From the NCBI GenBank assembly GCA_028712505.1, contig JAQTQC010000005.1, positions 7,051 through 71,050 of the forward strand: a stretch of DNA of 64,000 nucleotides, written 5' to 3'. The stretch is from Candidatus Omnitrophota bacterium. Lineage in GTDB: Bacteria > Omnitrophota > Gorgyraeia > Gygaellales > Profunditerraquicolaceae. Under the pieces are notes generated by a model that had not been told where the DNA came from, searched no databases, and saw nothing but the letters and a program-made list of their open reading frames with translations. The translations under genes and the position numbers were made by a program. Of this stretch, positions 23,145-64,000 are shown piece after piece (positions within the stretch are counted from its first letter, which is position 1; every line of letters starts with the position of its first letter).

Positions 23145-24059
23145 ATGAGGAATGAGGTAAAAGCCCGTGAATTTAATGTCTTAATTGTTGAGGACGATGA
23201 TAGAACATTTAAAGTTATCAGCGATGGGCTGACGGTTAACCCTGAATATAAGCTGCACCGGGTAACTACCGGGCAGGAAGCGATCAACCTGGCTAAAGAG
23301 GGTTATTTTGTCGCTATTATAACTGAGATGCAGATCGGTGATATGAACGGGATAGAATTAGTCCGCCGGCTTAAGAAAATAGACCAACGAATTAATATTA
23401 TCGGCCTGACTGTCTATGCCTTTGTTAATTTAGGCGTAGAGGCAATGAAGGAAGGGCTTTATGCGTATCTGATGAAGCCGTTAAATACCGAAGAACTGAA
23501 TTTAGTTTTAAGGCGGGCCATCGAAAATACATTTCTTTTGATCCAGGCAGGCCAGAGGAAGTATTATCAGGATATTGCGACAATGGATGGCTTGACCGGT
23601 GTTTATAACCATCGGCATTTCCATGAAATGCTGGATTGGAATATCTCGCATTTAAACCGTTCCCCCCAGGCATTTTCAATATTCATCATTGATATCGATG
23701 ATTTCAAAAAATACAATGATACAAAAGGTCATGTAGAAGGGGACAAGGTATTGCATAACTTCGCGCAGTTATTAGTCAGCTCCACCCGGGATAATGACAT
23801 GGTTTTCCGATACGGAGGAGAAGAGTTCGCTGTAATTTTATCTCAGACAGATCAGTTGAGTGCCCAAAAAGCGGGTGATAGGCTTTTGGCAATAGTAAGA
23901 AGCAGGATGCCTGTGACTATGAGCGTAGGTTTAGCTAGTTTTCCGATGAACGCTCAAATTAAAAGCGATCTTGTTGTGCGCGCTGATAAGGCTCTTTACC
24001 GGGCTAAGAAAACAGGTAAAAACAGGCTGTGTACTTATGATGAGAAGATAGACATATGA
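23145..24059 (+). CDS. response-regulator receiver domain fused to a GGDEF diguanylate cyclase (intact GGEEF and RxxD I-site; Glu in place of the phospho-acceptor Asp)
   Basis: REC-like N-terminus (VLIVEDDD ... LTVYAF ... YLMKP) but FVAIITEMQIGDMNG where LLDLMMPGMDG is expected. C-terminus carries DGLTGVYNHRHF ... RDNDMVFRYGGEEFAVIL ... ALYRAKKTGKNR. RBS GGAGG upstream. The TGA stop overlaps the atpE ATG (ATGA at 24056-24059). Confidence 0.8.
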   Translation: MRNEVKAREFNVLIVEDDDRTFKVISDGLTVNPEYKLHRVTTGQEAINLAKEGYFVAIITEMQIGDMNGIELVRRLKKIDQRINIIGLTVYAFVNLGVEAMKEGLYAYLMKPLNTEELNLVLRRAIENTFLLIQAGQRKYYQDIATMDGLTGVYNHRHFHEMLDWNISHLNRSPQAFSIFIIDIDDFKKYNDTKGHVEGDKVLHNFAQLLVSSTRDNDMVFRYGGEEFAVILSQTDQLSAQKAGDRLLAIVRSRMPVTMSVGLASFPMNAQIKSDLVVRADKALYRAKKTGKNRLCTYDEKIDI

Positions 24060-24268: not shown

Positions 24269-24313
24269 ATAAATTCTTAAATTTGTATTCAGTGTTCCCT
24301 CGCTTATACGCTC

Positions 24314-24334: not shown

Positions 24335-24384
24335 TTCGCAAGCTCGGGATTTCGCTAAATAAGAGCATAAGGTGCTCAAATTCG

Positions 24385-24423: not shown

Positions 24424-24444
24424 CTCATTTAAAGAGGAGTTCAT

Positions 24445-26669: not shown

Positions 26670-26685
26670 GTTTTAAGGAGTAAAA

Positions 26686-27576: not shown

Positions 27577-27590
27577 GAAAGAGGAGCTTT

Positions 27591-29000: not shown

Positions 29001-29020
29001 ATTTTAGGGGAGACTAAAAA

Positions 29021-30748
29021 ATGTTAATTAAAATTGGGCAGATGTTGATTAACAAGAAATTGATTACCTCTGAGCAGTTAGAAGAGGCGCTTACCGAGCA
29101 GACCAGGACGGGTGAGCTCTTGGGGGTGATTTTGATCAAGAAAGGCTTCTTGAACCAGGAGGATTTTTTAAAAGTACTTTCGGAGCAATTTAATGTGCCT
29201 TTCATAAAGTTAAAAGAAACTACCATTGATCCTTTGGCGATCAAGAAAGTCCCTGCCAAGTTCGCCTGGTATTACAAGGTTATGCCGGTAAAGTTTGTAG
29301 ATAATAAATTACTGATTGCTTCTTCCGATCCTTTACGTTCCCTGGATGACTTGAGAATATTTTTAGGTTATGATTTAAAGCCTGCCCTGGCTGAAGAAAC
29401 TGAAATTATGGAAGCGATTAAAGAGCATTATGGTGTAGGAGCCGAGACCGTAGAGGGGATTATTGCTAAGGCGCCCAAGGATGTCAGAGTTCCAGACGCC
29501 TCAAAAGAAACAGGCAGGATCGAGGATATTGAAAAGTTAGCCGAAGATGCCTCAGTGGTCAAACTGGTAAATCAGATTATCTTGGAGGCTTATCAAAAAA
29601 GAGCTACTGATATCCATATTGAGCCATTCAGAGGCAAGATGAGTATAAGGTATCGTATCGACGGTGTACTTTATAACGCGAATGTACCGGCGGATATTGA
29701 GCGGTTTTTCCTGGCCATTATTTCGCGTATAAAGATAATGTCCAGGCTGAATATCGTAGAACGCCGGCTTCCCCAGGATGGCCGCGCCGTGATAAAGATA
29801 GGTAAGGAAGAACTGGATCTGAGGATCTCGATTATACCCACGCGTTATGGCGAGGGCATGGTAATAAGGATCCTCCCTATGAGCATGCTTTTTAGTTTGG
29901 AAAGACTGGGACTAGCGCCTGAAGATTTAGAGCTCTTGGCAAAATTGATCAAGAAGCCCCATGGCATAATCCTGGTGACCGGCCCGACGGGAAGCGGTAA
30001 GAGTACCACTTTGTATGGATGTTTGAATGATATAAAAAGCAGCAGGAATAAGATAATTACCATTGAAGATCCTATCGAGTATGAGTTGGAAGGTATAACT
30101 CAGATTCAGGTGGTTCCTGAAATAGGCTTTACTTTTGCTCAAGGTTTAAGAAGTATCTTAAGGCATGACCCGGATATAATGATGGTTGGAGAGATCCGGG
30201 ATTTTGAGACCGCTGAGCTGGCAATCCGTAGTGCCTTGACCGGCCATCTAGTTTTCTCTACCATCCACACCAATGATGCCGCAGGCGCAGTTGCCCGTCT
30301 CTTAAATATCGGTATTGAGCCGTATCTGGCGGCTTCTTCAGTTGAGGCATTTATTGCTCAAAGGCTGGTGCGCTTAATCTGCCCTGACTGCAAGAAAATC
30401 GATACTGACGTACCGGATAATTTCAGGTCATTGATCGGTCAGGATATAGCCAGGAGTGGTGGAGGATTGCAACACTTGAAACCGGAAGAGATCAAGATTT
30501 ATAAAGGCCAGGGTTGCAAGGAGTGTAATTTTACCGGCTATAAGGGCAGGACTGCAATCCATGAAATATTAGTAGTGGATAAGGGGATACGGGAGCTGAT
30601 GCTCAGAAAAGCCTCAACCGATGAATTGCGGGATAAGGCGGTCAGTGCCGGCATGAAAACATTGCGTCTATGCGGATGGAAAAAAGTTATTGACGGTTTG
30701 ACTACCCCTGAAGAGATATTGAGGGTAACCCAGGCAGAGGAGTATTAA
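29021..30748 (+). CDS. gspE: T2SS/T4P assembly ATPase GspE/PilB family (N-terminal GspE_N/MshEN-like domain, Walker A GPTGSGKST, tetra-Cys zinc motif)
   Basis: Motifs GPTGSGKSTTLY, DPIEYEL, MVGEIRD, CPDCKK...CKECNFTGYKGR. N-terminal KIGQMLINKKLITSEQLEEALTEQ. Confidence 0.85.
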   Translation: MLIKIGQMLINKKLITSEQLEEALTEQTRTGELLGVILIKKGFLNQEDFLKVLSEQFNVPFIKLKETTIDPLAIKKVPAKFAWYYKVMPVKFVDNKLLIASSDPLRSLDDLRIFLGYDLKPALAEETEIMEAIKEHYGVGAETVEGIIAKAPKDVRVPDASKETGRIEDIEKLAEDASVVKLVNQIILEAYQKRATDIHIEPFRGKMSIRYRIDGVLYNANVPADIERFFLAIISRIKIMSRLNIVERRLPQDGRAVIKIGKEELDLRISIIPTRYGEGMVIRILPMSMLFSLERLGLAPEDLELLAKLIKKPHGIILVTGPTGSGKSTTLYGCLNDIKSSRNKIITIEDPIEYELEGITQIQVVPEIGFTFAQGLRSILRHDPDIMMVGEIRDFETAELAIRSALTGHLVFSTIHTNDAAGAVARLLNIGIEPYLAASSVEAFIAQRLVRLICPDCKKIDTDVPDNFRSLIGQDIARSGGGLQHLKPEEIKIYKGQGCKECNFTGYKGRTAIHEILVVDKGIRELMLRKASTDELRDKAVSAGMKTLRLCGWKKVIDGLTTPEEILRVTQAEEY

Positions 30749-30752
30749 GCAG

Positions 30753-30993: not shown

Positions 30994-32226
30994 ATGCCGA
31001 TATTTGTTTATCAGGCGAAAAAAGGCCCGCAGGAAATTATCGATGGTACGGTGGAAGCCGCAACCAAGGAAGCGGCTGTCAGTAAAATAGAGCAGATGGG
31101 CTATATGCCTATCAGGCTTAGCCTTAAGGAAGGGTCGGCTGTTGGCAATACCGGTAATCTTCAGGGAAATAGGGCCTTTAGTTTCTTTGACCGGATAAGC
31201 TCCCGCGATCTGAATGTTTTTACCGACCAGCTGGCTACTCTGGTTAAGTCTAAAGTGCCGCTTTTTGAAGCAATCAATATACTTTCTTCTCAGACGGAGA
31301 ATCCCAAATTAAAACAAATAATAATCGCCATATCCGGGCAGCTAAAAGACGGCAAGACTCTTTCTGAGGCTTTGAGCAAGTATCCTAAGGTTTTCCCCCT
31401 TCTTTATGTGAATATGGTTCATTCCGGGGAATCCGGAGGGGTATTAGATGAGACTCTGACCCGGTTGGCTAAATTCCGCGAAGAGCAGGAAGAGGTGAGG
31501 GCTAATATAAGCTCAGCCTTGGCATATCCGATATTTATATCAATAGTTGGATTGATTACCGTCATTATCCTGCTTACTTTCGGTATTCCGCGTTTAGCCT
31601 CCATGTTCAGCGAAAATAAACAAGCCCTGCCCTTACCGACTAAGTTCTTGATTTCAATGAGCAGCGGGATCAGGAATTACTGGTATCTCGGGGTTATATT
31701 CATAGGCTTGGCTGTTTTTATACTGCGGCAAAAACAGGCAATTGAAAAGAATAAGGCTGCGATTGATAAATTTATATTAAAGTTGCCCCTGATCGGGAAT
31801 TTTAGCAAGAAGGCGATGCTGGCGGAATTTACCCGGACATTTGCCTTACTTCTGGCTAATGGGGTGCCGGTGCTTGAGGCCTTGCAGATAACCGTGCCGA
31901 CAATTAATAACGAAATGTTCAGGATAGAATTGGAGAAGGTGCATAGTGATATTGTCGTGGGTACCCCCCTTTCCCAAAGTATGAAGAAATCCAGCTGGTT
32001 TCCTCCTTTTCTGACCAATATGATTGCGGTCGGAGAAAGAGGGGGGAATTTGCAGGAGGTATTATTGGAAGTGGCGGTTTTTTACGAACGCGAAGTAAGA
32101 AAAATAAACAAGATAATGACTTCTTTGCTTGAGCCGGCGATAATTTTGATCATGGGCTTAATCGTAGGGTTTATCGTTATAGCAATGCTCCTGCCTATTT
32201 TTGAAATAAATATGGCGGTACAATAA
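30994..32226 (+). CDS. gspF: T2SS/T4P inner-membrane platform protein GspF/PilC family
   Basis: MPIFVYQAKKGPQEIIDGTVEAATKEAAVSKIEQMGYMPI N-terminus. Two GspF repeats with three TM segments. Confidence 0.85.
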   Translation: MPIFVYQAKKGPQEIIDGTVEAATKEAAVSKIEQMGYMPIRLSLKEGSAVGNTGNLQGNRAFSFFDRISSRDLNVFTDQLATLVKSKVPLFEAINILSSQTENPKLKQIIIAISGQLKDGKTLSEALSKYPKVFPLLYVNMVHSGESGGVLDETLTRLAKFREEQEEVRANISSALAYPIFISIVGLITVIILLTFGIPRLASMFSENKQALPLPTKFLISMSSGIRNYWYLGVIFIGLAVFILRQKQAIEKNKAAIDKFILKLPLIGNFSKKAMLAEFTRTFALLLANGVPVLEALQITVPTINNEMFRIELEKVHSDIVVGTPLSQSMKKSSWFPPFLTNMIAVGERGGNLQEVLLEVAVFYEREVRKINKIMTSLLEPAIILIMGLIVGFIVIAMLLPIFEINMAVQ

Positions 32227-32241
32227 TTAAGGGGGATTCAA

Positions 32242-32658
32242 ATGAGGGCAAAAAGCGGTTTTACACTTATAGAATTAATGTTGGTAGTCATAATTCTTGG
32301 TGTCTTAGCAGCGATGGTGATGCCCAGACTGTCCGGACGTTCAGAGCAGGCCAAGGTTGCGGTGGCCAAGACAGATATCAGCGCTAATATAGCGACTGCG
32401 CTTGATCTTTATGAACTGGATAACGGCCGTTATCCGACTACGGAACAGGGTTTGGCTGCCTTATCGACAAAACCGGGAGATCTTTCTGAGGGGGCGAACT
32501 GGAATGGACCGTACATCAAGAAAGAGTCGCAAGACCCCTGGAATAAAGAATATCAATATAAATATCCCGCTACACATGAAGGCCAGGATTATGATTTGTA
32601 TTCTTTGGGTCCGGACGGCATAGAGAGCGAAGATGATATCGGTAACTGGCAAAAATGA
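32242..32658 (+). CDS. gspG: major pseudopilin GspG (T2SS type)
   Basis: Prepilin leader plus GFTLIELM. YELDNGRYPTTEQGLAAL, DPWNKEYQY and DLYSLGPDG closely match the GspG consensus. Confidence 0.85.
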   Translation: MRAKSGFTLIELMLVVIILGVLAAMVMPRLSGRSEQAKVAVAKTDISANIATALDLYELDNGRYPTTEQGLAALSTKPGDLSEGANWNGPYIKKESQDPWNKEYQYKYPATHEGQDYDLYSLGPDGIESEDDIGNWQK

Positions 32659-33100
32659 AGCCTTGGATCTTTTAAACTGTAAGGCGGATGCTGAGCGGCC
32701 AATTCTTCGGCCGCGAACGCATAAAGGTTTTACGTTAATTGAGATAATGATTAGCGTGTCTATCCTTTCCTTGGGGCTTATCCTGATCATGCAGGGGCTT
32801 GCTAAATGTGTAAATATTTTGCGTATTTCCCAGAGCAACCTGGCGGCAACCTTATTGGCCGAGGATAAGATGGCCGAGATGGAAATAGCAGCCAAGCAGG
32901 ATGGTGCAAAGGCATTTCTTGGCGATACAAGCGGGGAAGAGAAATCCGGTAATCTGGAGCTCAATTGGCAGATACGCCTGACTCCGGATGAGGAATACGA
33001 GAATCTAAACCGGATTTTGGCTACTGTCCGTTGGAAAGATGGCCGTAATAACGGCTCAAGTGTTCTTAGCACCTATTTGACGATTTTTAATGATAAATAA
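32633..33100 (+). CDS. minor pseudopilin (GspH/GspI-like); true start uncertain
   Basis: KGFTLIEIMISVSILSLGLILIM prepilin-type N-terminus. The annotated ATG gives an unusually long 31-aa leader. Confidence 0.6.
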   Translation: MISVTGKNEALDLLNCKADAERPILRPRTHKGFTLIEIMISVSILSLGLILIMQGLAKCVNILRISQSNLAATLLAEDKMAEMEIAAKQDGAKAFLGDTSGEEKSGNLELNWQIRLTPDEEYENLNRILATVRWKDGRNNGSSVLSTYLTIFNDK

Positions 33101-33707
33101 AAGAAATAAGAGAATAAAACCCGCAGGGTTTACTCTGGTTGAGTTGATTATCAGCGGAGCGATAATCTTATTGGTTTCGGTAACTGTCTATTCCGTTTTT
33201 GCCAGCGGTATAAATGTTTGGAGAAAGGCAAATCAGTTCCAGGGTAAAGGTCATGCCCTAAGGTTGGTTGTTGAGAAGATGAGCAGGGAGATAAGGAATA
33301 CGTTTAGGTTTTCTACTATTCCTTTTGAAGGCAGCGAGAGTATTGTCTATTTTCCTCAGATCGTTGACAGCCAGCTCAGCAGGGTTATTTATTTTGTTGA
33401 TGAAAAGGAGAATTTTTGCCGCAGGACCCAGAGTTATCCTGAAGTTTTTGAGAAGGGGGAGTCTGGAAAATGTGATATACTGCTTCCCGGGTTGAAAAAG
33501 TTGAGATTTGAATACTGTTATCTTGATAATGCCAGCGGGGAATATGAATGGAAGGATAAATGGGTTAAGGAGGAGCAGGATACTATCCCCCAGGCAATCA
33601 AAGCAGAGTTTACTTTTGAGGGGCAGAACGGAGAAGAGCTAAAGTTTGCTAAGACAGTATTTATCCCCATTGGTACCGGAGAGCAAAAAATAGAACTTAT
33701 CCAGTAA
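33090..33707 (+). CDS. minor pseudopilin (GspJ-like)
   Basis: MINKRNKRIKPAGFTLVELIISGAIILLV prepilin N-terminus, 205 aa. Confidence 0.6.
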   Translation: MINKRNKRIKPAGFTLVELIISGAIILLVSVTVYSVFASGINVWRKANQFQGKGHALRLVVEKMSREIRNTFRFSTIPFEGSESIVYFPQIVDSQLSRVIYFVDEKENFCRRTQSYPEVFEKGESGKCDILLPGLKKLRFEYCYLDNASGEYEWKDKWVKEEQDTIPQAIKAEFTFEGQNGEELKFAKTVFIPIGTGEQKIELIQ

Positions 33708-33714
33708 GGTATTT

Positions 33715-34734
33715 ATGTCCAGGAATGGTATTTATTCTCGCGCAAGTGTATTGATTATTACTCTCTGGGTTTTAGGTTTCTTGACCATCCTGGTGGTTAA
33801 CCTGGGGTTTATGGTGAGGAGCCAGCTGCAATTTGCCGATCACTTTCAAGATAGGTTGAAAATGTATTACCTGGCCCGCGCGGGCATAGAAAGAGCGGTT
33901 GCTGAATTGTATGTAGATGATACTGAAAGCACCGACGCCCTGAATGAATCATGGGCGAATAAGGAAGAATTTTTTAAAGACTTGGCTTTTGGGGGCGGTT
34001 TTATCAGCGTTAGCTATAAGATGAATGACAAAGAAGACCAGGATGAAATAACCTTGTACGGGGTAATGGATGAGGCAAGCAGGATAGATATAAATAACGC
34101 ACCCTCTGAGGTATTGGTGACCTTGTTGGAAAATATCGGTGGAGTAGAAACAGAAGAGGCGATAGATATTGCCGCTGCCATTGTTGATTGGAGGGATAAG
34201 GATGTTGCGCTTTCTACTGGCGGGGCGGAAAGCGATTATTATAAAGGGTTGTCGCCGGGCTATGATTGCAAGAATGGAAATTTTCAGGTGGCCGAAGAGT
34301 TGTTGCTGGTTAAAGGTATGACTGCAGAGATTTTTTCCAAAATCAAGAACCTGATCACTGTCTACGGTACAGTCCAGGTGAATATCAATACTGCAGGTTT
34401 TAACTGTTTTTATGCCTTAGGTTTGAACAGCGACCTTTGCGATAAAATAATTAAATTCCGCCAGGGCAGCGATGAATTATCCGGTACTGAGGATGATTAT
34501 GTTTTTAACGCACCCGTGGAATTGATGAATGTCGGATCTTTGTTTACCAAGGAGGCTACACAGATAAACACCCTGATTTCCAGGAATATGCTTAAGGTAA
34601 AATCCGATATCTTCAGGATTAGCTCCTTAGGTATACTCAAGAATGCCAGGGGAGAGCGTTCCCGCGGGATTGTTTGCGTTTTAAAGCGTCAAAAGGATAA
34701 AAACCCTAAATTATTATATTGGCATGAAAATTAA
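33715..34734 (+). CDS. gspK: GspK-like large minor pseudopilin
   Basis: SRASVLIITLWVLGFLTILVVNL N-terminal segment, about 340 aa, plus MYYLARAGIERAVAEL, typical of GspK. Confidence 0.6.
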   Translation: MSRNGIYSRASVLIITLWVLGFLTILVVNLGFMVRSQLQFADHFQDRLKMYYLARAGIERAVAELYVDDTESTDALNESWANKEEFFKDLAFGGGFISVSYKMNDKEDQDEITLYGVMDEASRIDINNAPSEVLVTLLENIGGVETEEAIDIAAAIVDWRDKDVALSTGGAESDYYKGLSPGYDCKNGNFQVAEELLLVKGMTAEIFSKIKNLITVYGTVQVNINTAGFNCFYALGLNSDLCDKIIKFRQGSDELSGTEDDYVFNAPVELMNVGSLFTKEATQINTLISRNMLKVKSDIFRISSLGILKNARGERSRGIVCVLKRQKDKNPKLLYWHEN

Positions 34735-36226
34735 CTTAGCGGATTTATTTAAGAAACCGGAACAGAGCACAACTGTCTTCCAGATAGATAATAACTGGTT
34801 GAGGTTGATTCAGATAAGGGAGCTTAAGCGGGAGAAAAAGGTCTCGGCGATTAAGGCCATAGAGATCACCAATCTATCCGACGAGCAGATTGCGCTTAAG
34901 ATTTCCGGTTTGGCTGCGGAGCTGAAGATAAACTCGCGGTCTCTTGTGCTTTCCATACCGCGCCATCAGACGACTACCAGGAATCTTGATTTACCTTCGG
35001 CAAATCCGCTCGAGATAAAAGATATGATCGAACTTCAGATCGGCAAGCAGACGCCTTATGCCAGCGATGAGGTGATTAAGGATTACCAGATTTTGGGTAG
35101 TAATGCGGAAGGTTACAGCAAAGTGCTTTTGGTTATTGTCCACCGGGATATTGTCGGCAGGTATTTTAAGGTAATCGAATCAGCAGGGCTAAAAGTGCAG
35201 AAGGTAAGTTTTAGTTCCGAAGGTTTATTGAATTGGAGAAGCCTGGTTTACCGGCAGAAGATAGCGGCTGAAAAGGTACAGATCTTGATCGAGGTTGATT
35301 ATGACGCAAGCGATTTTGAGGTTGTCCTTAATGATCGGTTAGTTTTTGGCAGGAGTATTTCGTTAGGCTTCTCGCAGTTTCCCGGTCAGCTTGATCTTTG
35401 GCAGAAGAAATTTATTGAAGAGGTAAATCACTCGATTTACGCTTACCAGAATGAAATAATCGGTAAGGAGATCGGTAAAATTATAATCAGCCGCCCAAGA
35501 TTAGTGGGGGACAGTTTGGATAAAGAACTCCTGGAAAAGGAGTTCGGTTCGTCAGTGGAGATTATCGATCAGTTTAAAGATATTCCTTTTACCGATGAAG
35601 GCTTGAATTCTTATAATAACTTGGTCAGGACGGATCTATCCTTTGCCGGGCTTCTCGGTTTAGGGTTGCCTGTCACTGAACATAAAATTGACCTTATTCC
35701 CCAGGAGCACCAGATAGGTAAGGCAGTAAAAGAAAAGGGAAAAGATCTTTATCTTATGGGCATATTGCTGGTGTTTATACTGGTTGCAGTCTCCGGAGTA
35801 TTCCTGGGAAGGATGTATAACAAGGAACGTTATCTCGGTCAGCTAAAGCAACGTCTTACTGAGATCCAGGATAAGACTAAGGAATTAAATAATATGGTCC
35901 GGGGCATAGAGACGATAAAAGACCGGGTTTATACAAGGGGGATGTCGCTAAATCTTCTTTATGAGGTGCATAAGGCGATCACACCTGAAATGCATTTGGT
36001 TTCGATGAGTTTTGACGGTAAAGAAACCCTGACCTTGCGTGGACAGTCTAATGAAATGTCGGAGGTTTTTAGCTTTGTAAATAAACTTGAAGAATCCAGC
36101 TATTTTCAGAACGTGAAGATAAAATACGCCACTAAACGCAAAGAAGGGGATAAGGAAATCACGGATTTTGAAATTTCCTGTCCTTTGGCGGACAAATACA
36201 AGGTTGCGGAGAAGTATAAATTATAA
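34724..36226 (+). CDS. GspL-like / PilM-PilN fusion (cytoplasmic actin-like domain, single TM, periplasmic domain)
   Basis: 500 aa with one TM helix (LYLMGILLVFILVAVSGVFLG) near residue 350 and a PilN/GspL-like C-terminal domain. Sits within the gsp gene order. Confidence 0.55.
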   Translation: MKINLADLFKKPEQSTTVFQIDNNWLRLIQIRELKREKKVSAIKAIEITNLSDEQIALKISGLAAELKINSRSLVLSIPRHQTTTRNLDLPSANPLEIKDMIELQIGKQTPYASDEVIKDYQILGSNAEGYSKVLLVIVHRDIVGRYFKVIESAGLKVQKVSFSSEGLLNWRSLVYRQKIAAEKVQILIEVDYDASDFEVVLNDRLVFGRSISLGFSQFPGQLDLWQKKFIEEVNHSIYAYQNEIIGKEIGKIIISRPRLVGDSLDKELLEKEFGSSVEIIDQFKDIPFTDEGLNSYNNLVRTDLSFAGLLGLGLPVTEHKIDLIPQEHQIGKAVKEKGKDLYLMGILLVFILVAVSGVFLGRMYNKERYLGQLKQRLTEIQDKTKELNNMVRGIETIKDRVYTRGMSLNLLYEVHKAITPEMHLVSMSFDGKETLTLRGQSNEMSEVFSFVNKLEESSYFQNVKIKYATKRKEGDKEITDFEISCPLADKYKVAEKYKL

Positions 36227-36228
36227 AT

Positions 36229-36762
36229 ATGGACTTTTTATCCAGGTTATCTAAAAAAGAAAGACGACTGTTTTATATCACGGTTGCGGTAGTGGCCATT
36301 GTATTCTTGGACAGGGTGGTATTTAAGCCGGTGATTAATAAGCTGGAAAGCTTCAACGGGAAGATTTCCTTAGAGGAGAAAAAGCTGGAGAAATCGATGC
36401 TCATCCTGGCGCAGGAGCAGGCTATAAACAACGAATACAAGAAATTTGCCGAGAATATAAAACAGTCACAGTCGGAAGAAGAGGTAATTGCCGGCCTCTT
36501 AAGCAGTATAGAGAAAATGGCCAATAGTGTTTCTGTCTTTATCTTGGATATGAAGCCCGGGCCGGTGGACAAGAGCGAGTTCTATAAGAAATACAGCGTT
36601 AAAGTGGAAGCTGAAGCAAAGATCAATAACTTATCGGATTTTATTTATCAACTGGAAAATTCTCCAAAGCTGCTCAGGGTATCTGATTTTCGCCTGACCC
36701 CCCAGAAAAAAGAGACTGTCCTTAAAGTCAGCATGACAGTTACAGAGGTCTTGATCAACTAA
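36229..36762 (+). CDS. GspM/PilO-like bitopic assembly protein
   Basis: N-terminal TM (FYITVAVVAIVFLDRVVF), a coiled coil, 177 aa. Last gene of the gsp block. Confidence 0.5.
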   Translation: MDFLSRLSKKERRLFYITVAVVAIVFLDRVVFKPVINKLESFNGKISLEEKKLEKSMLILAQEQAINNEYKKFAENIKQSQSEEEVIAGLLSSIEKMANSVSVFILDMKPGPVDKSEFYKKYSVKVEAEAKINNLSDFIYQLENSPKLLRVSDFRLTPQKKETVLKVSMTVTEVLIN

Positions 36763-39429: not shown

Positions 39430-39795
39430 ATGGCTAAAAAGATATTATTGGTTGATGATGAACCGCATATAATTATGATGTTGGAAAATAGGATGAAGCA
39501 TGCCGGTTATGATGTAATTACTGCTTGCGATGGCCAGGAGGCTCTTACCAAGGCGCAGAAAGAAAAACCCGACCTGATTATCTTGGATTTAATGCTTCCT
39601 AAATTAGACGGCTATAAAGTATGCCGGATGCTCAAGTTTGATGAAAAATATAAACATATACCGATAATTATGCTTTCCGCCCGGGCACAGGAAGCAGACA
39701 AAAAAATGGGGGAGGCTGTAGGGGCAGATGGTTATGTGACCAAACCTTTTGAGCCGCAGGTATTGTTGGGTAAGGTAAAAGATCTGCTGGGGTAA
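39430..39795 (+). CDS. single-domain CheY-like response-regulator receiver
   Basis: KILLVDDEP, DLIILDLMLPKLDGY, IIMLSA, YVTKPFEP. RBS AGGAGG 8 nt upstream of the ATG at 39430. About 65% identical to the receiver at 60997-61371. Confidence 0.8.
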   Translation: MAKKILLVDDEPHIIMMLENRMKHAGYDVITACDGQEALTKAQKEKPDLIILDLMLPKLDGYKVCRMLKFDEKYKHIPIIMLSARAQEADKKMGEAVGADGYVTKPFEPQVLLGKVKDLLG

Positions 39796-39805
39796 AGTAT
39801 TATGT

Positions 39806-39833
39806 TTGACATTTGCAATTAAAGTGGTATAAT
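39806..39833 (+). promoter_or_regulatory. near-consensus sigma70 promoter TTGACA - 16 nt - TGgTATAAT
   Basis: -35 TTGACA at 39806-39811; extended -10 TGGTATAAT at 39825-39833. Confidence 0.6.
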
Positions 39834-57159: not shown

Positions 57160-60100
57160 ATGCAGTCATTTTTTAAGTCCCAGATGGATTATATCTTCTT
57201 CATCTACGGGATGAGCTTCTTTATTCTCGCCGTCACCTGCCTGCTATTAATAAATACTGAAGAGAAAAAAATACCCTGGTTTTGGCTGGGGTTATTCGGT
57301 GTTGCCCACGCGATTAATGAATGGCTGGATTTGTGGGCTTTGTCCATCGGGGATACCTTTTTTTTCAGGTTAGCGCGCTTGGCGATACTGGCATTATCCT
57401 TTATTTTCCTGGCAGAATTCTCCCGTGTTTCTTTCTTGGTTTTGAAAGAGAAGTCCTTAAGCCGGTGGTTTTTTATTCCCTGGTTGATATTAGTCTATTT
57501 GGGGTGGTATTTTGGCGAAGATAATGGCCTTAACTTTACCTGTCGTTATTTTCTGGGTTTTGTCAGCGCTTTTAGCGCAGGGGCCATCTTAGTATTTTAT
57601 GCCTTAAAATTAAAGAATCCTCAGAGGCGCTTGATCGTTTATCTAGGCCTTTTTATTACAGCCTATTCTTTTACTCAGCTGGTAATCGCCAACCCTCCGT
57701 TTTTACTCAAACATACTTTATTCAACCAGGATAATTTCACCCGGTTTCTAGGTTTCCCCGTACAGTTACTGCGTTCTGTATTGGCTATGTGTATCGCCTT
57801 TACCATACTGACATACTGGTATTTTGTGCAAGGATGGCTGTATGGGGACAGGCCAGGAAAAGAGCGAAAAAAAGGACTTTTGTCAATAGGATTGATCTAC
57901 TTAATTTTGATAATCCTTGGCTGGTTGTTTGCCTATGAAACCGGTATTTATTTTCAAAAGTTGAATGCAGATGAACTCTCGGCTAAGGCTAAGACTGCAT
58001 CTTCGGCAATTAATTTCCGCCGCGTAGAAACACTTACTGCAACGCCGGCGGATATCGCTACTCCTAATTACCAGCGTCTCAAAGAGCAGCTCAGAGCGAT
58101 AAATGAGGCTAATGTTGAAATAAGCTATGTTTATTTAATTCGTTTTGACAACGGAAGGATAACTTTTCTTGTAGATTCGGAGCCGGATTCATCCGGCAAT
58201 AATTCTCCTCCGGGCCAGGTCTATGCAGAAGCGCCGCCGGAATTAAAGAATAAGTTTTTTAGCCAGCGGACTTTTGTCATTGATTCTTATATTGATAGAT
58301 GGGGTAATTGGGTCTCTGCTTTTTCCCCGGTCATTGACTTAGAAAGCAACAAAACAATTGCTTTAATCGGCATGGACGTGGATGCTAAGATCTGGCAGCA
58401 AAAGATGTTTGAGCATCGCCTGTTTGGTATCTTGGTTGATTTATGTGTATTCCTTTTGTTTTCCACTATTTTCATTATCTATCAGGTCAGCCGGGCTACT
58501 AATGAGAAAATAGCTGATTCCCAAAGGCACTTGCAGACATTGATCGATAATATCCCCAGTCCGGTTTTTTACAAAAATATCCAAGGTGTTTATCTAGGAT
58601 GTAATTTTGCTTTTGCGCAGTTCTTTGGATTAACAAAAAAAGACATAATCGGCAAGACTTTATTTGATTTTAACCCCTTGAATCAGGCAGAACTTAACCG
58701 CCGGGTGGATTTAGAGTTGTTTGGCCTGCATGATGGCGGCTCTAAGTCTTATGAAGCTGAATTGACAGATGCGCAAGGCAAGCAGCATATCATATTCTTA
58801 AATAAATCCACCTATCCTGGACCGGAGGGAAAGGTTGCCGGCTTGGTAGGGGTGATGCAGGATATTACCGAACGGATTAGGGCTGATGAGCGTATACAGA
58901 AGTTAACTAAAATTCAGTCTGCTCTGTTTAATCCGGGAAAGCTGGAAGATAAACTTAGGATAATCACGGATAATGTGGTGGATATCTTTCAGGCTGATTT
59001 CTCGCGCATCTGGCTGATGGAGCCGGCAGACCGGTGTAATTCAGGGTGCCCGCATGCTGCAGTTACAGAAGGGCCGCATATTTGCCTCAACCGGAAACAA
59101 TGTTTGCATTTAGTTGCCAGCTCGGGGCGTTATACACATATTGATGGAGGAGCGCATTCACGGGTCCCTTTTGGCTGCTATAAGATTGGCGGCATAGCAT
59201 CTGGAGAGTATCCTTCCTTTTTGACTAATGATGTAGCACATGATCTAAGGGTTCATAACCACAAATGGGCAGATCAATTGGGCTTGGTTTCTTTTGCTGG
59301 TTTCAGGCTGGGATTATCTGCCAGTGAAACAATTGGAGTATTGGCGCTTTTTTCAAAACAAACCATATCCCCCGATGAATATGCATTGATGAAGGTTATC
59401 AGTAATTTGACGATTCGGGTAATCAAGGCGTCGCAGGCAGAGGAGGGATTAAAGAAAAGCGAGGCGTGGTTTTCTACTACTTTGACTAGCATCGGAGATG
59501 CAGTAATTACTGTTGATACGGCTGGTCTAATAACTTTTATCAATCCTGTGGCTGAGAAATTAACCGGTTGGTTAAAATCCGAGGCTATAGGCAGATATAT
59601 AGATGATGTGTTTGTGATTAAGCAGGAAGATACGGGCGAAAAGGCTGCTAACCCTGTTCTAGAGGTTTTAAATAATGTCCGGATAGTGAATTTAGCTAGT
59701 CATGCTGTTTTGATATCTAAAGATGGGGGCAGGTGTGCGATTGACGATAGTGCTGCACCGATTAAAAGTGTAAATAGCCAAGAAGCTATAGGGGTGGTTT
59801 TGGTTTTTCGCGATGTTACTCAGAGGAATAAGATGGAAAATGAGTTGCGTGAGCTTTCCGTTGCTGTGGAACAAAGCCCTACCTGCGTAGTTATTACTGA
59901 TTTAAAGGGGGATATCCAGTATATCAATCCTAAGTTTACACAGATCACAGGTTATACTTCTGCCGAGGTTATTGGTAAAAATCCGCGCATATTGAAATCG
60001 GGAGGACAATCAGCCGAATTTTATAAGAATTTGTGGGATACAATCGTCTCAGGTAGGGAATGGCGGGGAGAGTTCCGTAATAAGAGGAAGAATGGCGAGC

Positions 60101-60930
60101 TTTATTGGGAAGAGGCATTTATATCTTCAATACGCAATCGCGAAGGAGTAATCACTAATTTTATTGCGGTTAAAGAAGATATCACTGAACGCAAGAAGAT
60201 GACACAAGAGTTAAAGCAGAAAAATATCGCGTTAGAGAAATTGGATCAGTTAAAGTCGGATTTTGTCTCTACTGTTTCTCATGAGTTACGTACGCCGCTT
60301 TCTATAACTAAAGAGGGGATTAGCCTGATTTTAGACGGCGTGATCGGGAGCATTAATCCTAGGCAAGAGAAGATCCTGACAACCTCAAAGAATAATATTG
60401 ACCGTTTAGCCAGGATTATTAATAACTTGTTGGATATATCTAAAATTGAGTCTGGAAAAATAGAGCTTAAAAAGAAGGATACCGATGTTATAGCCTTGAT
60501 CAACAATACGTTTGTTGCGTTTGAGAATAAGGCTAAAGAGAAAGGATTGGAGCTGAGGGTAAATTTGCCTAAGGGGCAAAGGTGCTTGTCTTTATATATT
60601 GATGAAGACAAGGTAATTCAGGTCTTTACTAATTTGATCGACAATGCTATTAAATTTACTGAAAAGGGGCATATCGGTGTTTCTCTGACGGAGAGGGAAA
60701 GTGAAGTGGAATTTGTTATCAACGATACAGGTATCGGCATCGCTGAAGAAGAACTGCCAAAAGTATTTAATAAGTTTTTACAATTCGGACGCACTGACGG
60801 AGGAGGAGAAAAGGGCACCGGATTGGGCCTTTCTATCGCCAAGGGGTTAATAGAATTGCATGGCGGTAAAATCCGGATAGAGAGTGAATTTGGCAAGGGG
60901 ACGAAGTTTATTTTTACCCTGCCTAAATGA
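57160..60930 (+). CDS. large hybrid-architecture sensor histidine kinase (7-8 TM N-domain, periplasmic Cache-like domain, multiple PAS/GAF domains, HisKA, HATPase_c)
   Basis: H-box [16 protein letters not shown] and G boxes [21 protein letters not shown]. The kinase core is paralogous to the kinase at 37956-39413. Confidence 0.8.
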
Positions 60931-60996
60931 TTTTACTTATTTTAACTTTAAGCTATACTGATAAAATAAGCTGATCTTTTGAAGGAGTAGCCTAAG

Positions 60997-61371
60997 ATGA
61001 AGAATGATAACGCTAAAATACTGGTCATTGATGATGAGCCGGATCTTGTTGAAATGGTCACCTTGAGGCTGGAGGTAAACGGTTATCAGGTTATCTCTGC
61101 TTATGACGGCCAAGAGGGTCTGGCTAAGGCCCGGAATGAGAATCCGGATTTAATTATTCTTGACCTTATGCTTCCTAAAATAGACGGCTATAAAGTTTGC
61201 CGTCTGCTGAAATTTGACGAAAAATATAAAAAGATACCGATAATACTTTTTACCGCCCGCGCCCAGGAATCTGATATAAAAGTAGGTGAAGATGTAGGGG
61301 CGGATTCCTATTTAACTAAACCGTTTGAGCCGGATGTGCTTTTGGTTAAGGTAGCTCAACTATTGAAATAA
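60997..61371 (+). CDS. single-domain CheY-like response-regulator receiver (paralog of 39430-39795)
   Basis: KILVIDDEP, DLIILDLMLPKIDGY, LTKPFEP. Confidence 0.8.
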   Translation: MKNDNAKILVIDDEPDLVEMVTLRLEVNGYQVISAYDGQEGLAKARNENPDLIILDLMLPKIDGYKVCRLLKFDEKYKKIPIILFTARAQESDIKVGEDVGADSYLTKPFEPDVLLVKVAQLLK

Positions 61372-61374
61372 TAA

Positions 61375-61713
61375 ATGAATGGCGGAGAAGTAAACAGAAA
61401 AGCTAAAAGAAAAGATTTTTCCTGCGAGATCAAGGTCCGTTTTCCCGGCCAGGATAGCTATACTGTTTTAGCGGTTAAAGATATCAGCGCATCAGGCGCC
61501 AGGGTCATCATCACCAGGTTAGTTAAGCCGGGGGATTCTTTTGAAATAAGAATGTGCATCAACGGCCGGGATATCCAGTGCCGGGGCAAGGTTGCCTGGG
61601 CTCTGCTATTGCGGCCGGGTTTCGGCAGGATAAATTCTTTTGATGCCGGGGTAGAATTTTTTGAAATAAGCCCGCAGGATAAGGATTTTTTGGCAAAATT
61701 AACCGAGCAATAG
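61375..61713 (+). CDS. PilZ-domain c-di-GMP receptor
   Basis: RKAKR (RxxxR) and DISASG (DxSxxG) motifs. Confidence 0.65.
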   Translation: MNGGEVNRKAKRKDFSCEIKVRFPGQDSYTVLAVKDISASGARVIITRLVKPGDSFEIRMCINGRDIQCRGKVAWALLLRPGFGRINSFDAGVEFFEISPQDKDFLAKLTEQ

Positions 61714-61741
61714 AAGTTGCTGGTTTCAAATCGGAGTTAAA

Positions 61742-63397
61742 ATGGAAATAATCGATCTATTATTAAAACAAAACCTGATTACCCAGGCGCAGGTGGATAA
61801 GGCTAGGGACGAGGTAAAACGCACCGGGATCAAGCTTGAAAAGGCGCTGGAAAAGCTGGGTTTTATCTCGGAGGAGGATATCGCCGAGGCCCGGGCGAAT
61901 GCCTTGGGTTTTTTGTATATGAATTTGGAGGATTATGTCATTGACGCTGAGCTCACCAAGCTTATCCCGGAGAATGTCGCTATCAAATATAAAGCGGTTC
62001 CGCTTTTTAAGATTATGGATGCTTTGACAGTGGCAATGACCGATCCTAGCGATATAGAGGCCCTGGATCATATCCGCAGGATCAGCAAGGCTGGATCCGT
62101 CGATCCGGTGTTGGTTTCTGCCAAGAGCATCGAGAAGATCCTGGATTCTTATTATGGCCAGGGTAACTCTGTTGAAGAGATTGTCAAAACCTTTGAAAGC
62201 AAAAAGCTGTTGGTTGATAAAGGCGCCTTGACTGAAGCTGCGGAAGAACCTCCGATAATAAAATTAGTGAATATCCTGATTTCCGAAGCAGTTAAGGATC
62301 GTGTTTCGGATATCCATATTGAGCCGGAGGCGGCAGTTCTGCGCGTGCGCTACCGTATTGACGGGATCTTGCATGAGGTGCATTCTTTGCCGAAGAAGCT
62401 GCAAAATTCGGTTATCTCGAGGATCAAGATCCTGGCGAATATGGATATCGCAGAGAATAGAAGACCGCAGGACGGAAAGATCAGCGTGAAATTGGAGAAT
62501 AAGGATTTGGATATCAGGGTCTCTACTTTTCCTACTGTCCACGGAGAGAATGTGGTGATGCGTTTGCTGGACCGTTCCTCTATTTTGTTAGGATTGAAGG
62601 ATCTAGGTTTTAGCGAGGAAAATCTGGATGTTTTCGCTAAAATGATCCTCCAGCCAAACGGGATCATCCTGGTTACCGGGCCCACCGGCAGCGGAAAAAC
62701 AACCACGCTTTATTCCGCCTTAAGCACAATCAGTTCTATGGAAAAAAATATCATCACTATTGAAGATCCGGTTGAGTATGAATTACCTTTGATCCGCCAG
62801 ACTCAGGTTAACCCTAAGGCAGATATCACTTTTGCCAATGGCCTGCGTTCAATCCTGCGCCAGGACCCGGATGTGATCATGGTCGGTGAAATCCGCGACA
62901 AGGAAACTGCTGAGGTAGCAATACAGGCATCTTTAACCGGCCACTTGGTTTTTTCCACGTTACACACCAATGATGCCCCCAGTTCGCTGACGCGTTTGAT
63001 TGATATGGGCCTTGAACCATTTTTAATCTCGAGTTCATTAATCCTGATTGTTGCTCAAAGGTTAGTACGCCAGATCTGTCCTAAATGTAAAGAAGAATAT
63101 TCTCCTACGCCTGCTGCTCTGCAGAATTTAGGCCTGGATACCAATACGAGATTTTTCCGCGGTAAAGGATGTCCTGCCTGTAAAAATACCGGATTTCTTG
63201 GCCGCATCGGGATATTTGAAATATTAGTGCTTAATGAGGTTATCCGTAAAATGGTCGAGGAAAGAAAATCTGCGGATGCGATAAAAAAGAAGGCGATTGA
63301 ATTGGGGATGAAGACTTTGCGTGAAGATGGCTTGGATAAGGCAAGACAGGGCTTGACTACTATTGAGGAGATATTAAGGGTAACTGAAATAGAATAA
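61742..63397 (+). CDS. second GspE/PilB-family assembly ATPase
   Basis: GPTGSGKTTTLY, MVGEIRD, CPKCKEEY ... CPACKNTGFLGR. Confidence 0.85.
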   Translation: MEIIDLLLKQNLITQAQVDKARDEVKRTGIKLEKALEKLGFISEEDIAEARANALGFLYMNLEDYVIDAELTKLIPENVAIKYKAVPLFKIMDALTVAMTDPSDIEALDHIRRISKAGSVDPVLVSAKSIEKILDSYYGQGNSVEEIVKTFESKKLLVDKGALTEAAEEPPIIKLVNILISEAVKDRVSDIHIEPEAAVLRVRYRIDGILHEVHSLPKKLQNSVISRIKILANMDIAENRRPQDGKISVKLENKDLDIRVSTFPTVHGENVVMRLLDRSSILLGLKDLGFSEENLDVFAKMILQPNGIILVTGPTGSGKTTTLYSALSTISSMEKNIITIEDPVEYELPLIRQTQVNPKADITFANGLRSILRQDPDVIMVGEIRDKETAEVAIQASLTGHLVFSTLHTNDAPSSLTRLIDMGLEPFLISSSLILIVAQRLVRQICPKCKEEYSPTPAALQNLGLDTNTRFFRGKGCPACKNTGFLGRIGIFEILVLNEVIRKMVEERKSADAIKKKAIELGMKTLREDGLDKARQGLTTIEEILRVTEIE

Positions 63398-63400
63398 CTA

Positions 63401-64000
63401 ATGCCTAATTTTCAGTATAAAAGCAGGGATAAATTTGGTAAGGAGGCCCGCGGCAGGATGGAGGGCTTTGACGAAAATTCCGTAGCCCAAAAGTTGATCC
63501 AGATGGGTTTTACCCCTGTTTCTATTAAAGAGGCAAAGGAAGCTATCCGCAGTTCCAAATTATCAGGTTCTTCGATGAGGATCAAATTCTCTGAGTTGAA
63601 TATGTTTACCCGTCAGCTTGCCACCCTGCAGAGGGCTGGCCTGCCGATCTTGCTTTCCTTGAATGCCTTGCGTGAACAATCCCAGGATAAAACTTTCAAA
63701 GAGGTTATCAGTCAGATAATCCGGGATATTGAATCAGGCTCAAGTTTATCCGGGGCATTAGAGAAATACCCAAAGATATTTAACAGCCTTTATTTGAATA
63801 TGGTTGCTTCCGGTGAAGCCAGCGGACGGCTGGATGAGGTTTTGGAAAGGCTGGCAACTTTGAGCGAGCATGATGAGACTATCCGGCTGCGGATTAAATC
63901 CGCAACCCGTTATCCTATTATCGTAGTAGTTGCGATGGTTATTGGTTTTGTGGTGTTGACTGTTTTAGTGGTTCCGCGCTACGCGAAGATTTATGAACAG
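63401..64000 (+). CDS. second GspF/PilC-family platform protein (3'-partial, runs off window)
   Basis: MPNFQYKSRDKFGKEARGRMEGFDENSVAQKLIQMGFTPVSI N-terminus. Open frame to the window end. Confidence 0.8.
   Translation, partial: MPNFQYKSRDKFGKEARGRMEGFDENSVAQKLIQMGFTPVSIKEAKEAIRSSKLSGSSMRIKFSELNMFTRQLATLQRAGLPILLSLNALREQSQDKTFKEVISQIIRDIESGSSLSGALEKYPKIFNSLYLNMVASGEASGRLDEVLERLATLSEHDETIRLRIKSATRYPIIVVVAMVIGFVVLTVLVVPRYAKIYEQ

Follow-up and report, generated by a model that had tools for sequence, protein, structure and literature searches.

The 64,000-nt stretch of Candidatus Omnitrophota DNA analysed here (hereinafter the window) carries at its end, in positions 57160-64000, a compact module that encodes a histidine kinase (HK2), a stand-alone response-regulator receiver (RR2), a PilZ protein, the ATPase GspE2 and the beginning of the platform protein GspF2. 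With confidence a little better than even, we favour the view that this module forms the regulatory head of an operon for a type IVa pilus (T4aP)-like machine, an operon that is complete, includes a secretin and has its first two structural genes within the module, and that phosphorylated RR2 and PilZ bound to cyclic di-GMP (c-di-GMP) gate the extension ATPase of this machine; the phosphotransfer partners, the binding of c-di-GMP and the ATPase as the target are what we infer here by comparative analysis. Rather than a duplicated secretion module, the locus represents known pilus regulation in a variant with local wiring.

The module and the operon downstream

All open reading frames (ORFs) of interest lie on the + strand of the window. 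Five genes were confirmed in the module, with domains called using Pfam and NCBIfam at the cutoffs of the respective models:

57160..60930, + strand, HK2: membrane histidine kinase, 1256 aa (Pfam, hydropathy, orthologues)
60997..61371, + strand, RR2: stand-alone CheY-like receiver of family A, 124 aa; Response_reg only (Pfam)
61375..61713, + strand, PilZ: canonical stand-alone PilZ protein, 112 aa; Pfam PilZ at 44 bits vs a cutoff of 22.5
61742..63397, + strand, GspE2: PilB/GspE-like extension ATPase, 551 aa, MshEN and T2SSE domains (Pfam, NCBIfam, tree)
63401..64000, + strand, GspF2: GspF2/PilC-like platform protein, T2SSF; first 200 of 404 aa, the gene being cut by the window end

The intergenic gaps in this series are 66, 3, 28 and 3 bp, a spacing that is operon-like, and the scan of 57160-64000 detected no terminator-like sites between the module genes. 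The promoter and terminator scans showed no enrichment over shuffled sequences and were uninformative save for a single perfect sigma70 consensus after the receiver gene of another cluster in the window (RR1, see below). Rfam families were detected neither in the window nor in the metagenome contig described next, at gathering thresholds; hence there is no c-di-GMP riboswitch in the window, and control at the RNA level was rejected.

A protein with precisely the GspE2 sequence is encoded by a metagenome contig from the Joint Genome Institute (L001, 33,958 bp), which matches the window at 99.96% identity across 12.3 kb and extends beyond its end. On this contig, GspF2 is followed, in this order, by a 135-aa protein, a 119-aa pilin, three minor-pilin-like proteins, a 537-aa PilM-PilN fusion, PilO-like and PilP-like proteins (both labelled by position only), two pilin-like proteins and a 536-aa secretin, after which come the unrelated genes for DUF2344 and RNase E/G. 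The 119-aa major pilin is of the T4a type and begins with MRKGFTLIELIM, a classic prepilin signal (class III); PilM_2 is matched in the 537-aa PilM-PilN-like protein and Pfam Secretin in the 536-aa protein. One of the minor-pilin-like proteins (277 aa, L001:13740-14573) contains approximately 12 consecutive glycines, has no Pfam match and is the least conserved protein of the cluster, with 33% identity to its orthologue in locus L162 vs 52-91% for the others.

An original prediction, made from the nucleotide sequence of the window, had read the series kinase-receiver-PilZ-GspE-GspF as a unit duplicated from a first such series, and had named a complete pilus operon continuing downstream of the second gspE-gspF pair as the finding that would speak against it. 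This is exactly the arrangement seen on L001, with its pilins, PilM-PilN fusion, PilO and secretin: GspE2 and GspF2 head a separate, complete pilus-like operon, and the duplicated unit is thereby refuted. A phylogeny of the ATPases points the same way. In a neighbour-joining tree (Kimura distances, bootstrap, rooted on PilT), the GspE2 type forms one clade (78% bootstrap) and the ATPase type of the first cluster, GspE1, another (73%), so that, judging from this tree, GspE1 and GspE2 are members of different deep clades; GspE2 groups, with weak support (56%), with PilB of PilB-PilT-PilC loci. The PilZ gene, for its part, has a shallow distribution.

Is the downstream machine a pilus or a secretion system? 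The gene content of this second cluster points to a T4aP-like machine because it includes PilM-PilN, PilO, a T4a-type pilin and a secretin of its own, without GspC, GspL, GspM or GspG-K matches. An alternative, which we deem unlikely, is a type II secretion system (T2SS) that exports proteins, such as a giant surface protein or hydrolases, with the sensory module gating secretion. Profile scores offer this alternative some comfort: GspE2 scores 626.5 bits with the GspE equivalog model (cutoff 630.25), higher than the 614.5 bits with PilB (cutoff 675.65), and the secretin scores slightly higher with GspD than with PilQ (254 vs a cutoff of 284 for the PilQ subfamily). All these values are under cutoff, as are those of GspF2 (343-361 vs 700 for the PilC models and 353.6 vs 424 for GspF), and none of the ATPases, platform proteins and the secretin reaches a T2SS or T4aP equivalog cutoff in NCBIfam. 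Furthermore, there is no PilT in the approximately 21 kb of the L001 locus, and T2SS-like loci have been reported near giant genes of Omnitrophota (bioRxiv 10.1101/2023.11.21.568195); PilT and PilD are encoded neither in the 64-kb window nor in the 21.6-kb L001 locus, and could lie elsewhere in the genome. Against the T2SS stand the PilM-PilN fusion, the PilO-like and PilP-like proteins and the 119-aa T4a-type pilin, the lack of Pfam matches to T2SSG, T2SSI, T2SSJ, T2SSK, T2SSL, T2SSM and GspC in cluster 2, the albeit weak grouping of GspE2 with PilB, and the assignment of such Omnitrophota clusters to T4aP by Seymour et al. (PMC10066038).

HK2, the kinase of the two-component pair at the head of the operon, consists of approximately 7 transmembrane (TM) segments, an extracytoplasmic region of approximately 150 aa and one further TM segment, followed by PAS-GAF-PAS-PAS-HisKA-HATPase_c. 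Hydropathy analysis gives approximately 7 hydrophobic segments in aa 1-265 and another one at approximately 416-446, which identifies HK2 as a membrane sensor. The HisKA (53.3 bits) and HATPase_c (102.9 bits) matches are above the Pfam cutoffs, the GAF match is weak (E 0.0025, under the cutoff), and there is no Pfam match in the sensor half (aa 1-450, 57160-58500). The protein ends at the HATPase domain and thus is without the degenerate GGDEF tail carried by most orthologous kinases. The kinase of L162 has a core 80% identical to that of HK2 yet its sensor is dCache_1-HAMP, which indicates that close relatives swap sensor modules. In RR2, the phosphorylation-site set is intact (D12, D13, D56, T86, K108) and there is no output domain; NCBIfam shows sub-threshold likeness to the DVU0259/DivK-type and EpsW single-domain regulators. 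A DNA-binding regulator is not encoded in the HK2-RR2-PilZ module.

Receivers and predicted c-di-GMP receptors at the extension ATPase

The ATPase itself suggests that c-di-GMP control at this locus would probably not run through the MshEN domain. MshE and PilB bind c-di-GMP via the MshEN domain, whose motif, RLGxx(L/V/I)(L/V/I)xxG(L/V/I)(L/V/I)xxxxLxxxLxxQ, spans 24 residues and occurs twice, with a 5-residue spacer (PMC5013675). In GspE2, the two half-motifs read EIIDLLLKQNLITQAQVDKARDEV and KLEKALEKLGFISEEDIAEARANA: neither has Gly3, Leu21 or Gln24, and Arg1 is replaced by Glu in half I and by Lys in half II. The motif is degenerate in 42/42 orthologues, with Gly3 and Gln24 found in 0/42 in both half-motifs. 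GspE2 still matches the Pfam MshEN fold model (65.9 bits) and marginally passes NCBIfam NF053729 (41.8 vs 38). The motif is canonical in the nearest ATPases from outside Omnitrophota (Nitrospirota and others) and mostly kept in the GspE1 type. Thus, GspE2 probably lost intrinsic c-di-GMP binding, and the direct, MshE-like mechanism is unlikely for it because GspE2 and its 42 orthologues are without the residues that contact c-di-GMP.

The PilZ protein encoded next to this ATPase is a candidate receptor. Its motifs, RKAKR (RxxxR) at residues 8-12 and DISASG (DxSxxG) at 36-41, are intact, and within a family of 19 members R12, D36, S38 and G41 are invariant and R8 nearly so. The AlphaFold2 model (pLDDT 83.9) has six strands, forming the barrel, and a C-terminal helix at 100-111; the best PDB matches of this model in Foldseek are the PilZ domains of Alg44, MotI, YcgR, BcsA and MapZ, with probability 1.00, and all of these best matches are c-di-GMP-bound canonical PilZ domains. 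Motifs, model and matches agree with the prediction that the PilZ of the second module is canonical, and the protein can be predicted to be a c-di-GMP receptor or adaptor. The RR-PilZ-ATPase arrangement is also present in L001, in L037, in L167 (where PilZ is 90% identical) and in L162 (78% identical). The notion that the PilZ gene is unique to this species was ruled out: L162 and L167 share the arrangement, and a custom PilZ hidden Markov model, with matches confirmed by Pfam, recovered divergent genes and fusions missed at E 1e-4. Related genes of the small PilZ family stand elsewhere as well, in the order PilZ-MlaE-MlaF-MlaD in L166, L168 and L169, and as PilZ, a 186-aa ORF, MarR and an RND pump in L163-L165; one of these paralogs comes from the same metagenome sample.

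Conserved gene order argues for a functional connection. A scan with one genome per species yielded 80 loci, in each of which ORFs were called and searched with the window proteins (phmmer, E 1e-4); the closest loci are from Candidatus Omnitrophota metagenome-assembled genomes, at no more than 93% identity (98% for one fragment). Orthologues of GspE2 (57-93% identity) were found in 42 Omnitrophota loci, each followed by the same pilus gene order. Among the 40 loci with at least 1.5 kb of upstream sequence, 28 have one to four stand-alone receivers immediately upstream of the ATPase gene (one receiver in 12 loci, two in 9, three in 4 and four in 3), and where 5 kb or more of upstream flank was available (32 loci), 20 loci also encode a histidine kinase there. 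The receivers fall into family A, with 37 members including RR1 and RR2, and family B, with 12 members that usually precede those of family A. The phospho-acceptor residues are kept in both families (D13, D56 and K108 in 37/37 members of family A), and in the sampled loci, family A receivers occur only beside these clusters.

Modules related to c-di-GMP are found repeatedly at the same junction. Stand-alone PilZ genes are located directly upstream of the ATPase gene, independently, in L021 (two genes), L024 (two genes), L022 and L044; REC-EAL genes (REC being the receiver domain) occupy the PilZ position in L025 and L028; and in L023, L030 and L031 the orthologous kinase has a PilZ domain at its C-terminus. 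In addition, HK1, the kinase of the first cluster, and 14 orthologous kinases end in a domain of approximately 135 aa without a Pfam match. A profile of 12 such tails matches diguanylate cyclases in PDB across the whole GGDEF domain (E 1.3e-9); GG[DE]EF is lost, at the I-site R64 is conserved at 90% or more and D67 is invariant, and many database homologues carry precomputed PF00990 annotations, some with GGDEF and PilZ. In HK1, the C-terminal 140 aa have KDDSA in place of GGEEF and keep the RxxD I-site, so that the tail is predicted to be a degenerate GGDEF receptor that binds c-di-GMP at the I-site; its interpretation as a PilZ or unknown domain was ruled out by the profile match. Kinase genes that lie 5' of the pilus ATPase gene and encode the domain series PAS-HisKA-HATPase-(degenerate GGDEF)-PilZ were seen at L023:7666-9606, L030:6580-8541 and L031:32-2035 as well as in P0046, P0069, P0071 and P0072, and thus place two domains of c-di-GMP receptor type on one kinase; triple fusions of the kinase, degenerate GGDEF and PilZ are found in L030 and in P0046 and P0071. 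Taken as comparative evidence, these arrangements and the ATPase fusions described below strongly support a c-di-GMP link. A different regulatory arrangement of the same operon is found in L015, L017 and L034 (~9260-9800), which lack the kinase-receiver module and in which the gene next to that of the ATPase, on its 5' side, encodes a PadR-family transcription regulator; in L015 and L017, moreover, the PilP-like gene is followed by two PilZ genes.

Domain fusions indicate what the partners might be. At least 10 distant loci of the cluster-1 type (L092, L096, L098, L099, L103, L112, L124, L129, L130, L152) encode Pfam-confirmed MshEN-T2SSE-PilZ fusions of 704-795 aa, all with RxxxR and D/NxSxxG, and in L146 (9581-11695) a receiver is fused to the N-terminus of the ATPase (REC-MshEN-T2SSE). 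Of the evidence at hand, these fusions speak most clearly for an action of PilZ and receiver domains on ATPases of this kind. In several of the ATPase-PilZ loci, a separate MshEN-only ORF of approximately 155 aa is present just upstream (e.g. L092:9983-10453).

Under the scenario that we favour, HK2 would sense an envelope or extracellular cue through its multi-TM sensor, and cytoplasmic cues through the PAS and GAF domains, autophosphorylate and pass the phosphoryl group to Asp56 of RR2. Phosphorylated RR2 and c-di-GMP-loaded PilZ would then contact the co-encoded GspE2 by protein-protein interaction, most likely at its N-terminal MshEN-like domain, which has lost its own c-di-GMP residues, and pilus assembly would be switched post-translationally by the combined His-Asp and c-di-GMP input. 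In cluster 1, c-di-GMP would enter via the degenerate GGDEF I-site of HK1 and the near-canonical MshEN domain of GspE1, with a neighbouring REC-GGDEF protein as the candidate source. A broader generalization, which we put forward only tentatively, is that Omnitrophota replaced the ATPase-intrinsic MshEN site of one motor lineage with a modular, cis-encoded kit of adaptors that gates the ATPase by phosphorylation and c-di-GMP; the kit would comprise stand-alone or fused canonical PilZ, the I-site degenerate GGDEF on the kinase, REC-EAL and one to four CheY-like receivers.

Several observations do not sit easily with this scenario. The kinase and receivers are missing from 12 of the 40 orthologous loci, including L020, with 90% ATPase identity; the PilZ gene is missing from most of the close relatives (L002-L008) and is limited to a shallow sub-lineage among the closest ones; the nearest PilZ paralogs (66-68%) precede the MlaEFD or MarR-RND genes. 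The fusions of PilZ to kinases fit action on the kinase as well as on the ATPase, the ATPase-PilZ fusions belong to the GspE1-type clade, not to the GspE2 orthologues, and the fused receiver of L146 is only approximately 30% identical to family A, such that its assignment to that family is not supported. The 12 loci without it show that the kinase-receiver module is a widespread but accessory attachment to the pilus operon. The occurrence of the paralogs in MlaEFD and MarR-RND contexts implies that the PilZ family is not pilus-specific and suggests that this small family serves several envelope machines; together with the shallow distribution, it indicates that the PilZ gene was recruited to this locus recently, out of a small PilZ family of Omnitrophota.

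The principal competing explanation is that PilZ, once loaded with c-di-GMP, modulates phosphotransfer by binding to HK2 or RR2, phosphorylated RR2 alone being the output. There is a precedent in HapZ, a stand-alone PilZ protein that, as cited in PMC10333796, inhibits phosphotransfer from SagS to HptB. The PilZ domains at the C-termini of the kinases of L023, L030 and L031 are compatible with such a mechanism, and so are the I-site degenerate GGDEF tails of the 14 orthologous kinases, which make the kinase the commonest entry point of c-di-GMP; HK2, which has no such tail, is accompanied by the PilZ gene instead. However, this complementarity is not clean since L162 has both a GGDEF-tailed kinase and a PilZ gene; besides, PilZ always adjoins the ATPase gene, 3' of the receivers, and, judging from the ATPase-PilZ fusions of cluster-1-type relatives, PilZ would have the ATPase as its partner. 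We regard action on the kinase-receiver pair as improbable, at about the same level as the T2SS.

Less likely still is indirect control, whereby RR2 is a phosphate sink or a connector to a kinase or regulator encoded elsewhere, in the manner of DivK or PilH, and the effect on the pilus is transcriptional or positional. The arrays of two to four receivers in the conserved B-then-A order do resemble branched or sink designs such as PilG/PilH (PMC11656802), RR2 has the sub-threshold likeness to the DVU0259/DivK type and EpsW, and no DNA-binding regulator is encoded in the module. However, the window has a single receiver and hence no sink-partner pair, the adjacency of receiver and ATPase is strict across 57-93% divergence, and L146 has the REC-ATPase fusion. 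Finally, HK2-RR2-PilZ could be a signalling cassette with no relation to the pilus, located by chance between housekeeping genes and the operon, as the 12 loci without it, the cupin gene (5' of HK2 in the window) that directly abuts the ATPase gene in L020 and L011, and the PilZ paralogs in other contexts might suggest; this is highly improbable considering that receivers lie immediately upstream in 28 of 40 loci across most of the divergence of the phylum, that family A receivers are found only beside these clusters, and that this one junction acquired PilZ, EAL and degenerate GGDEF several times in independent events, with domain fusions to boot.

The first cluster and the extent of paralogy

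Cluster 1 is located upstream in the window; the approximately 20 kb between it and the second cluster are taken up by housekeeping genes (NikR/Cbi transport, MTHFR, glycine cleavage, lipoate, ThyX). Cluster 1 and its flanks comprise the following features:

23145..24059, + strand: REC-GGDEF diguanylate cyclase upstream of cluster 1; GGEEF and RDND I-site; conserved synteny
29021..30748, + strand: GspE1, ATPase of the F-ATPase-linked T2SS-like cluster; near-canonical MshEN motif
30994..36762, + strand: remainder of cluster 1, GspF1, GspG, GspI, GspJ, GspK, PilM-PilN fusion, PilO/GspM-like
36791-37897: chorismate-binding (isochorismate/anthranilate synthase-like) gene between PilO1 and HK1; also in L082 and L083
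37956..39413, + strand: HK1, soluble PAS-HisKA-HATPase kinase with the C-terminal degenerate GGDEF; paralog of HK2
39430..39795, + strand: RR1, stand-alone receiver of family A; paralog of RR2; last gene of the cluster-1 string

A secretin, GspC and GspH of cluster 1 were not found in the 64-kb window. HK1 has no hydrophobic segments, and its HisKA (60.1 bits) and HATPase_c (93.3 bits) matches are above the Pfam cutoffs; HK1 and HK2 share the H-box SHELRTPL; the phosphorylation-site residues of RR1 are equivalent to those of RR2, with Ser at the T position. The start of RR1 is most likely at 39430 rather than at 39376 because AGGAGG precedes the ATG there and the orthologues are 121-125 aa long. 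In GspE1, the MshEN half-motifs are KIGQMLINKKLITSEQLEEALTEQ and LLGVILIKKGFLNQEDFLKVLSEQ, each with 10/11 positions on the relaxed motif; half I has Lys in place of both Arg1 and Gly10, half II has Leu in place of Arg1, and NF053729 is matched at 65.1 vs 38.

Alignment bears out the paralogy that was originally proposed for the kinase cores and the receivers: HK1 and HK2 share 52% of the residues in a core alignment of 250 aa (E 2e-73), and for RR1 and RR2 the identity is 68% over 117 aa (E 1e-58), so that the earlier figure of about 65% is right for the receivers only. GspE1 and GspE2 (42%) and GspF1 and GspF2 (36%) are much less similar, and on these values close paralogy is limited to the kinase-receiver pair. 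Both pairs belong within one clade of pilus-linked Omnitrophota kinases and receivers. HK1 is about equidistant (48-53%) from all GspE2-linked kinases, and RR1 shows 71% identity to family A receivers of distant genomes, being as close to these as to RR2 (66%), which makes the HK1-RR1 pair an offshoot of the pilus-linked pair that is either old or fast-evolving, rather than the product of a recent duplication within this genome. Of the duplicated two-component and c-di-GMP control envisaged at the outset, then, the kinase-receiver paralogy and, on comparative grounds, the c-di-GMP link stand, whereas the duplicated module does not.

The linkage of each kinase-receiver pair to a gspE-gspF cluster also holds, with HK2-RR2 conserved upstream of GspE2 orthologues and HK1-RR1 closing cluster 1 at its 3' end, a position that is conserved in relatives with kinase identities as low as 72%. 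In L128, L171 and L172, HK1-RR1 directly follows PilO, with different genes further downstream; the chorismate-binding gene is accordingly an insertion in the lineage of the window, and the reading of HK1-RR1 as only a loose follower of cluster 1 behind that gene is ruled out by the same three loci. The GGDEF gene noted upstream of the first pair is likewise confirmed, with its GGEEF and RDND motifs and conserved synteny. Its receiver has Glu at the phospho-Asp position (AIITEMQIG vs LIILDLMLP) and may be a phosphorylation-independent pseudo-receiver.

The surroundings of cluster 1 have further features. Right after the RR1 stop, at 39806-39833, there is a perfect sigma70 promoter sequence (TTGACA, 16 nt, TATAAT, extended TG), approximately 250 bp 5' of a DEAD-box helicase gene, which as a predicted element marks the next unit. 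Genes of an F-type ATPase are interleaved with the cluster in 24056-30992: a 70-aa c-subunit-like ORF (24056-24268), a b/delta fusion, alpha, gamma and beta, then gspE1, with a 79-aa epsilon-like ORF (30753-30992) between gspE1 and gspF1, the orthologues of which in L171 and L172 match ATP-synt_DE_N. A metagenome scan with GspE1 as the query gave another 80 loci, and the atp-gspE adjacency was found in more than 35 of these. That atp and pilus genes are co-located was already described by Seymour (2023); the position of the epsilon-like gene, with gspE on one side and gspF on the other, may be unpublished. Before all these genes, a single 7364-aa ORF occupies 75-22169 and is followed by a peptidase_MA-like gene, REC-GGDEF and cluster 1; the 7364-aa ORF fits the giant surface proteins reported for Omnitrophota.

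Significance and comparison with known systems

Control of type IV pili by c-di-GMP and by receivers is well known, and a histidine kinase with an I-site degenerate GGDEF domain exists in Myxococcus xanthus, namely SgmT. For Omnitrophota, an uncultivated phylum, an attachment-dependent lifestyle, predatory or parasitic, has been proposed, and type IV pili are considered central to it. If the proposed wiring is real, the adaptor kit could make these ultra-small, host-dependent bacteria deploy their pili when they touch a host, and the ATPase-PilZ and REC-ATPase fusions would represent a previously undescribed class of type IV filament ATPases gated by a second messenger or by phosphorylation. 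The loci present a compact wiring, from the sensor kinase to the receiver(s) and PilZ to the ATPase, that lends itself to testing, and the "Rosetta stone" fusions (ATPase-PilZ, REC-ATPase, HK-degenerate GGDEF-PilZ) nominate direct partners that can be tested recombinantly, without cultivation. The contrast within one genome between a motor with a degenerate MshEN motif and another with a near-canonical one, moreover, could inform on the gain, loss and outsourcing of c-di-GMP control in the PilB family; to judge from the loci compared here, c-di-GMP-related modules probably accumulated around the motor that lost intrinsic binding.

Some elements of this picture have been described before. F-type ATPase genes are co-located with T4aP-like clusters in Omnitrophota (PMC10066038), and T2SS-like loci and small pilZ genes occur near the giant genes (West-Roberts et al. 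2023, bioRxiv 10.1101/2023.11.21.568195). The Omnitrophota papers covered by a term search make no mention of two-component regulators at such loci, and PilZ and GGDEF appear there only next to giant genes (West-Roberts et al.); a survey of PilZ architectures that was searched mentions fusions neither with ATPases nor with histidine kinases. ATPase-PilZ, REC-ATPase and HK-degenerate GGDEF-PilZ proteins were not found described in the part of the literature that was searched, in which the Omnitrophota papers were unchecked for ATPase fusions and MshEN states.

How does the locus compare with systems characterized in other bacteria? In Xanthomonas citri, PilZ binds residues 12-163 of PilB, that is, the N-terminal domain, and the PdeK-PdeR and PilG/PilH inputs feed into the pilus (PMC11656802, PMC8389850). 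The likeness to the PilZ systems of Xanthomonas and Pseudomonas is apparent: a small stand-alone PilZ protein is encoded beside an extension ATPase whose N-terminal domain does not (here, is predicted not to) bind c-di-GMP, and a two-component system with c-di-GMP-related domains feeds in, with REC-EAL at the same position in two of the related loci. However, PilZ of Xanthomonas and Pseudomonas has lost RxxxR and D/NxSxxG, has an incomplete barrel and does not bind c-di-GMP, whereas the PilZ of the window has intact motifs and a predicted full barrel and so is not of that type, which leaves a functional analogy only. Furthermore, there is no FimX-like protein here, the pilus operon itself starts with the genes of its presumed regulators, which thus act from a cis location, and RR2 is a receiver without an output domain. 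With MshE of Vibrio cholerae, PilB of M. xanthus and PilF of Thermus thermophilus, the ATPases of the window share the MshEN-T2SSE architecture, and GspE1 also keeps most of the relaxed motif in each half, in contrast to GspE2 and its 42 Omnitrophota orthologues, which lack the Arg, Gly, Leu21 and Gln24 that contact c-di-GMP.

The receivers are reminiscent of PilG and PilH of the Pil-Chp system, which are involved in the localisation of type IV pilus ATPases, in being output-less receivers linked to a type IV pilus and in that related loci often have two or more receivers of distinct families. Unlike PilG and PilH, they would be fed by a classical HisKA kinase, not by a CheA/MCP array, and their genes abut the ATPase gene. 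Like SgmT, HK1 and the 14 orthologous kinases have a GGDEF-fold C-terminus that has lost GG[DE]EF and kept RxxD, and as in HapZ-SagS of Pseudomonas aeruginosa, a stand-alone PilZ adjoins a two-component pair; in both comparisons, the domain order differs, there is no DNA-binding partner regulator, and c-di-GMP binding at the Omnitrophota loci is a prediction from sequence. Cluster 1, with the atp genes preceding gspE1 and located after the 7364-aa ORF, is an instance of the Omnitrophota loci already published (Seymour; West-Roberts).

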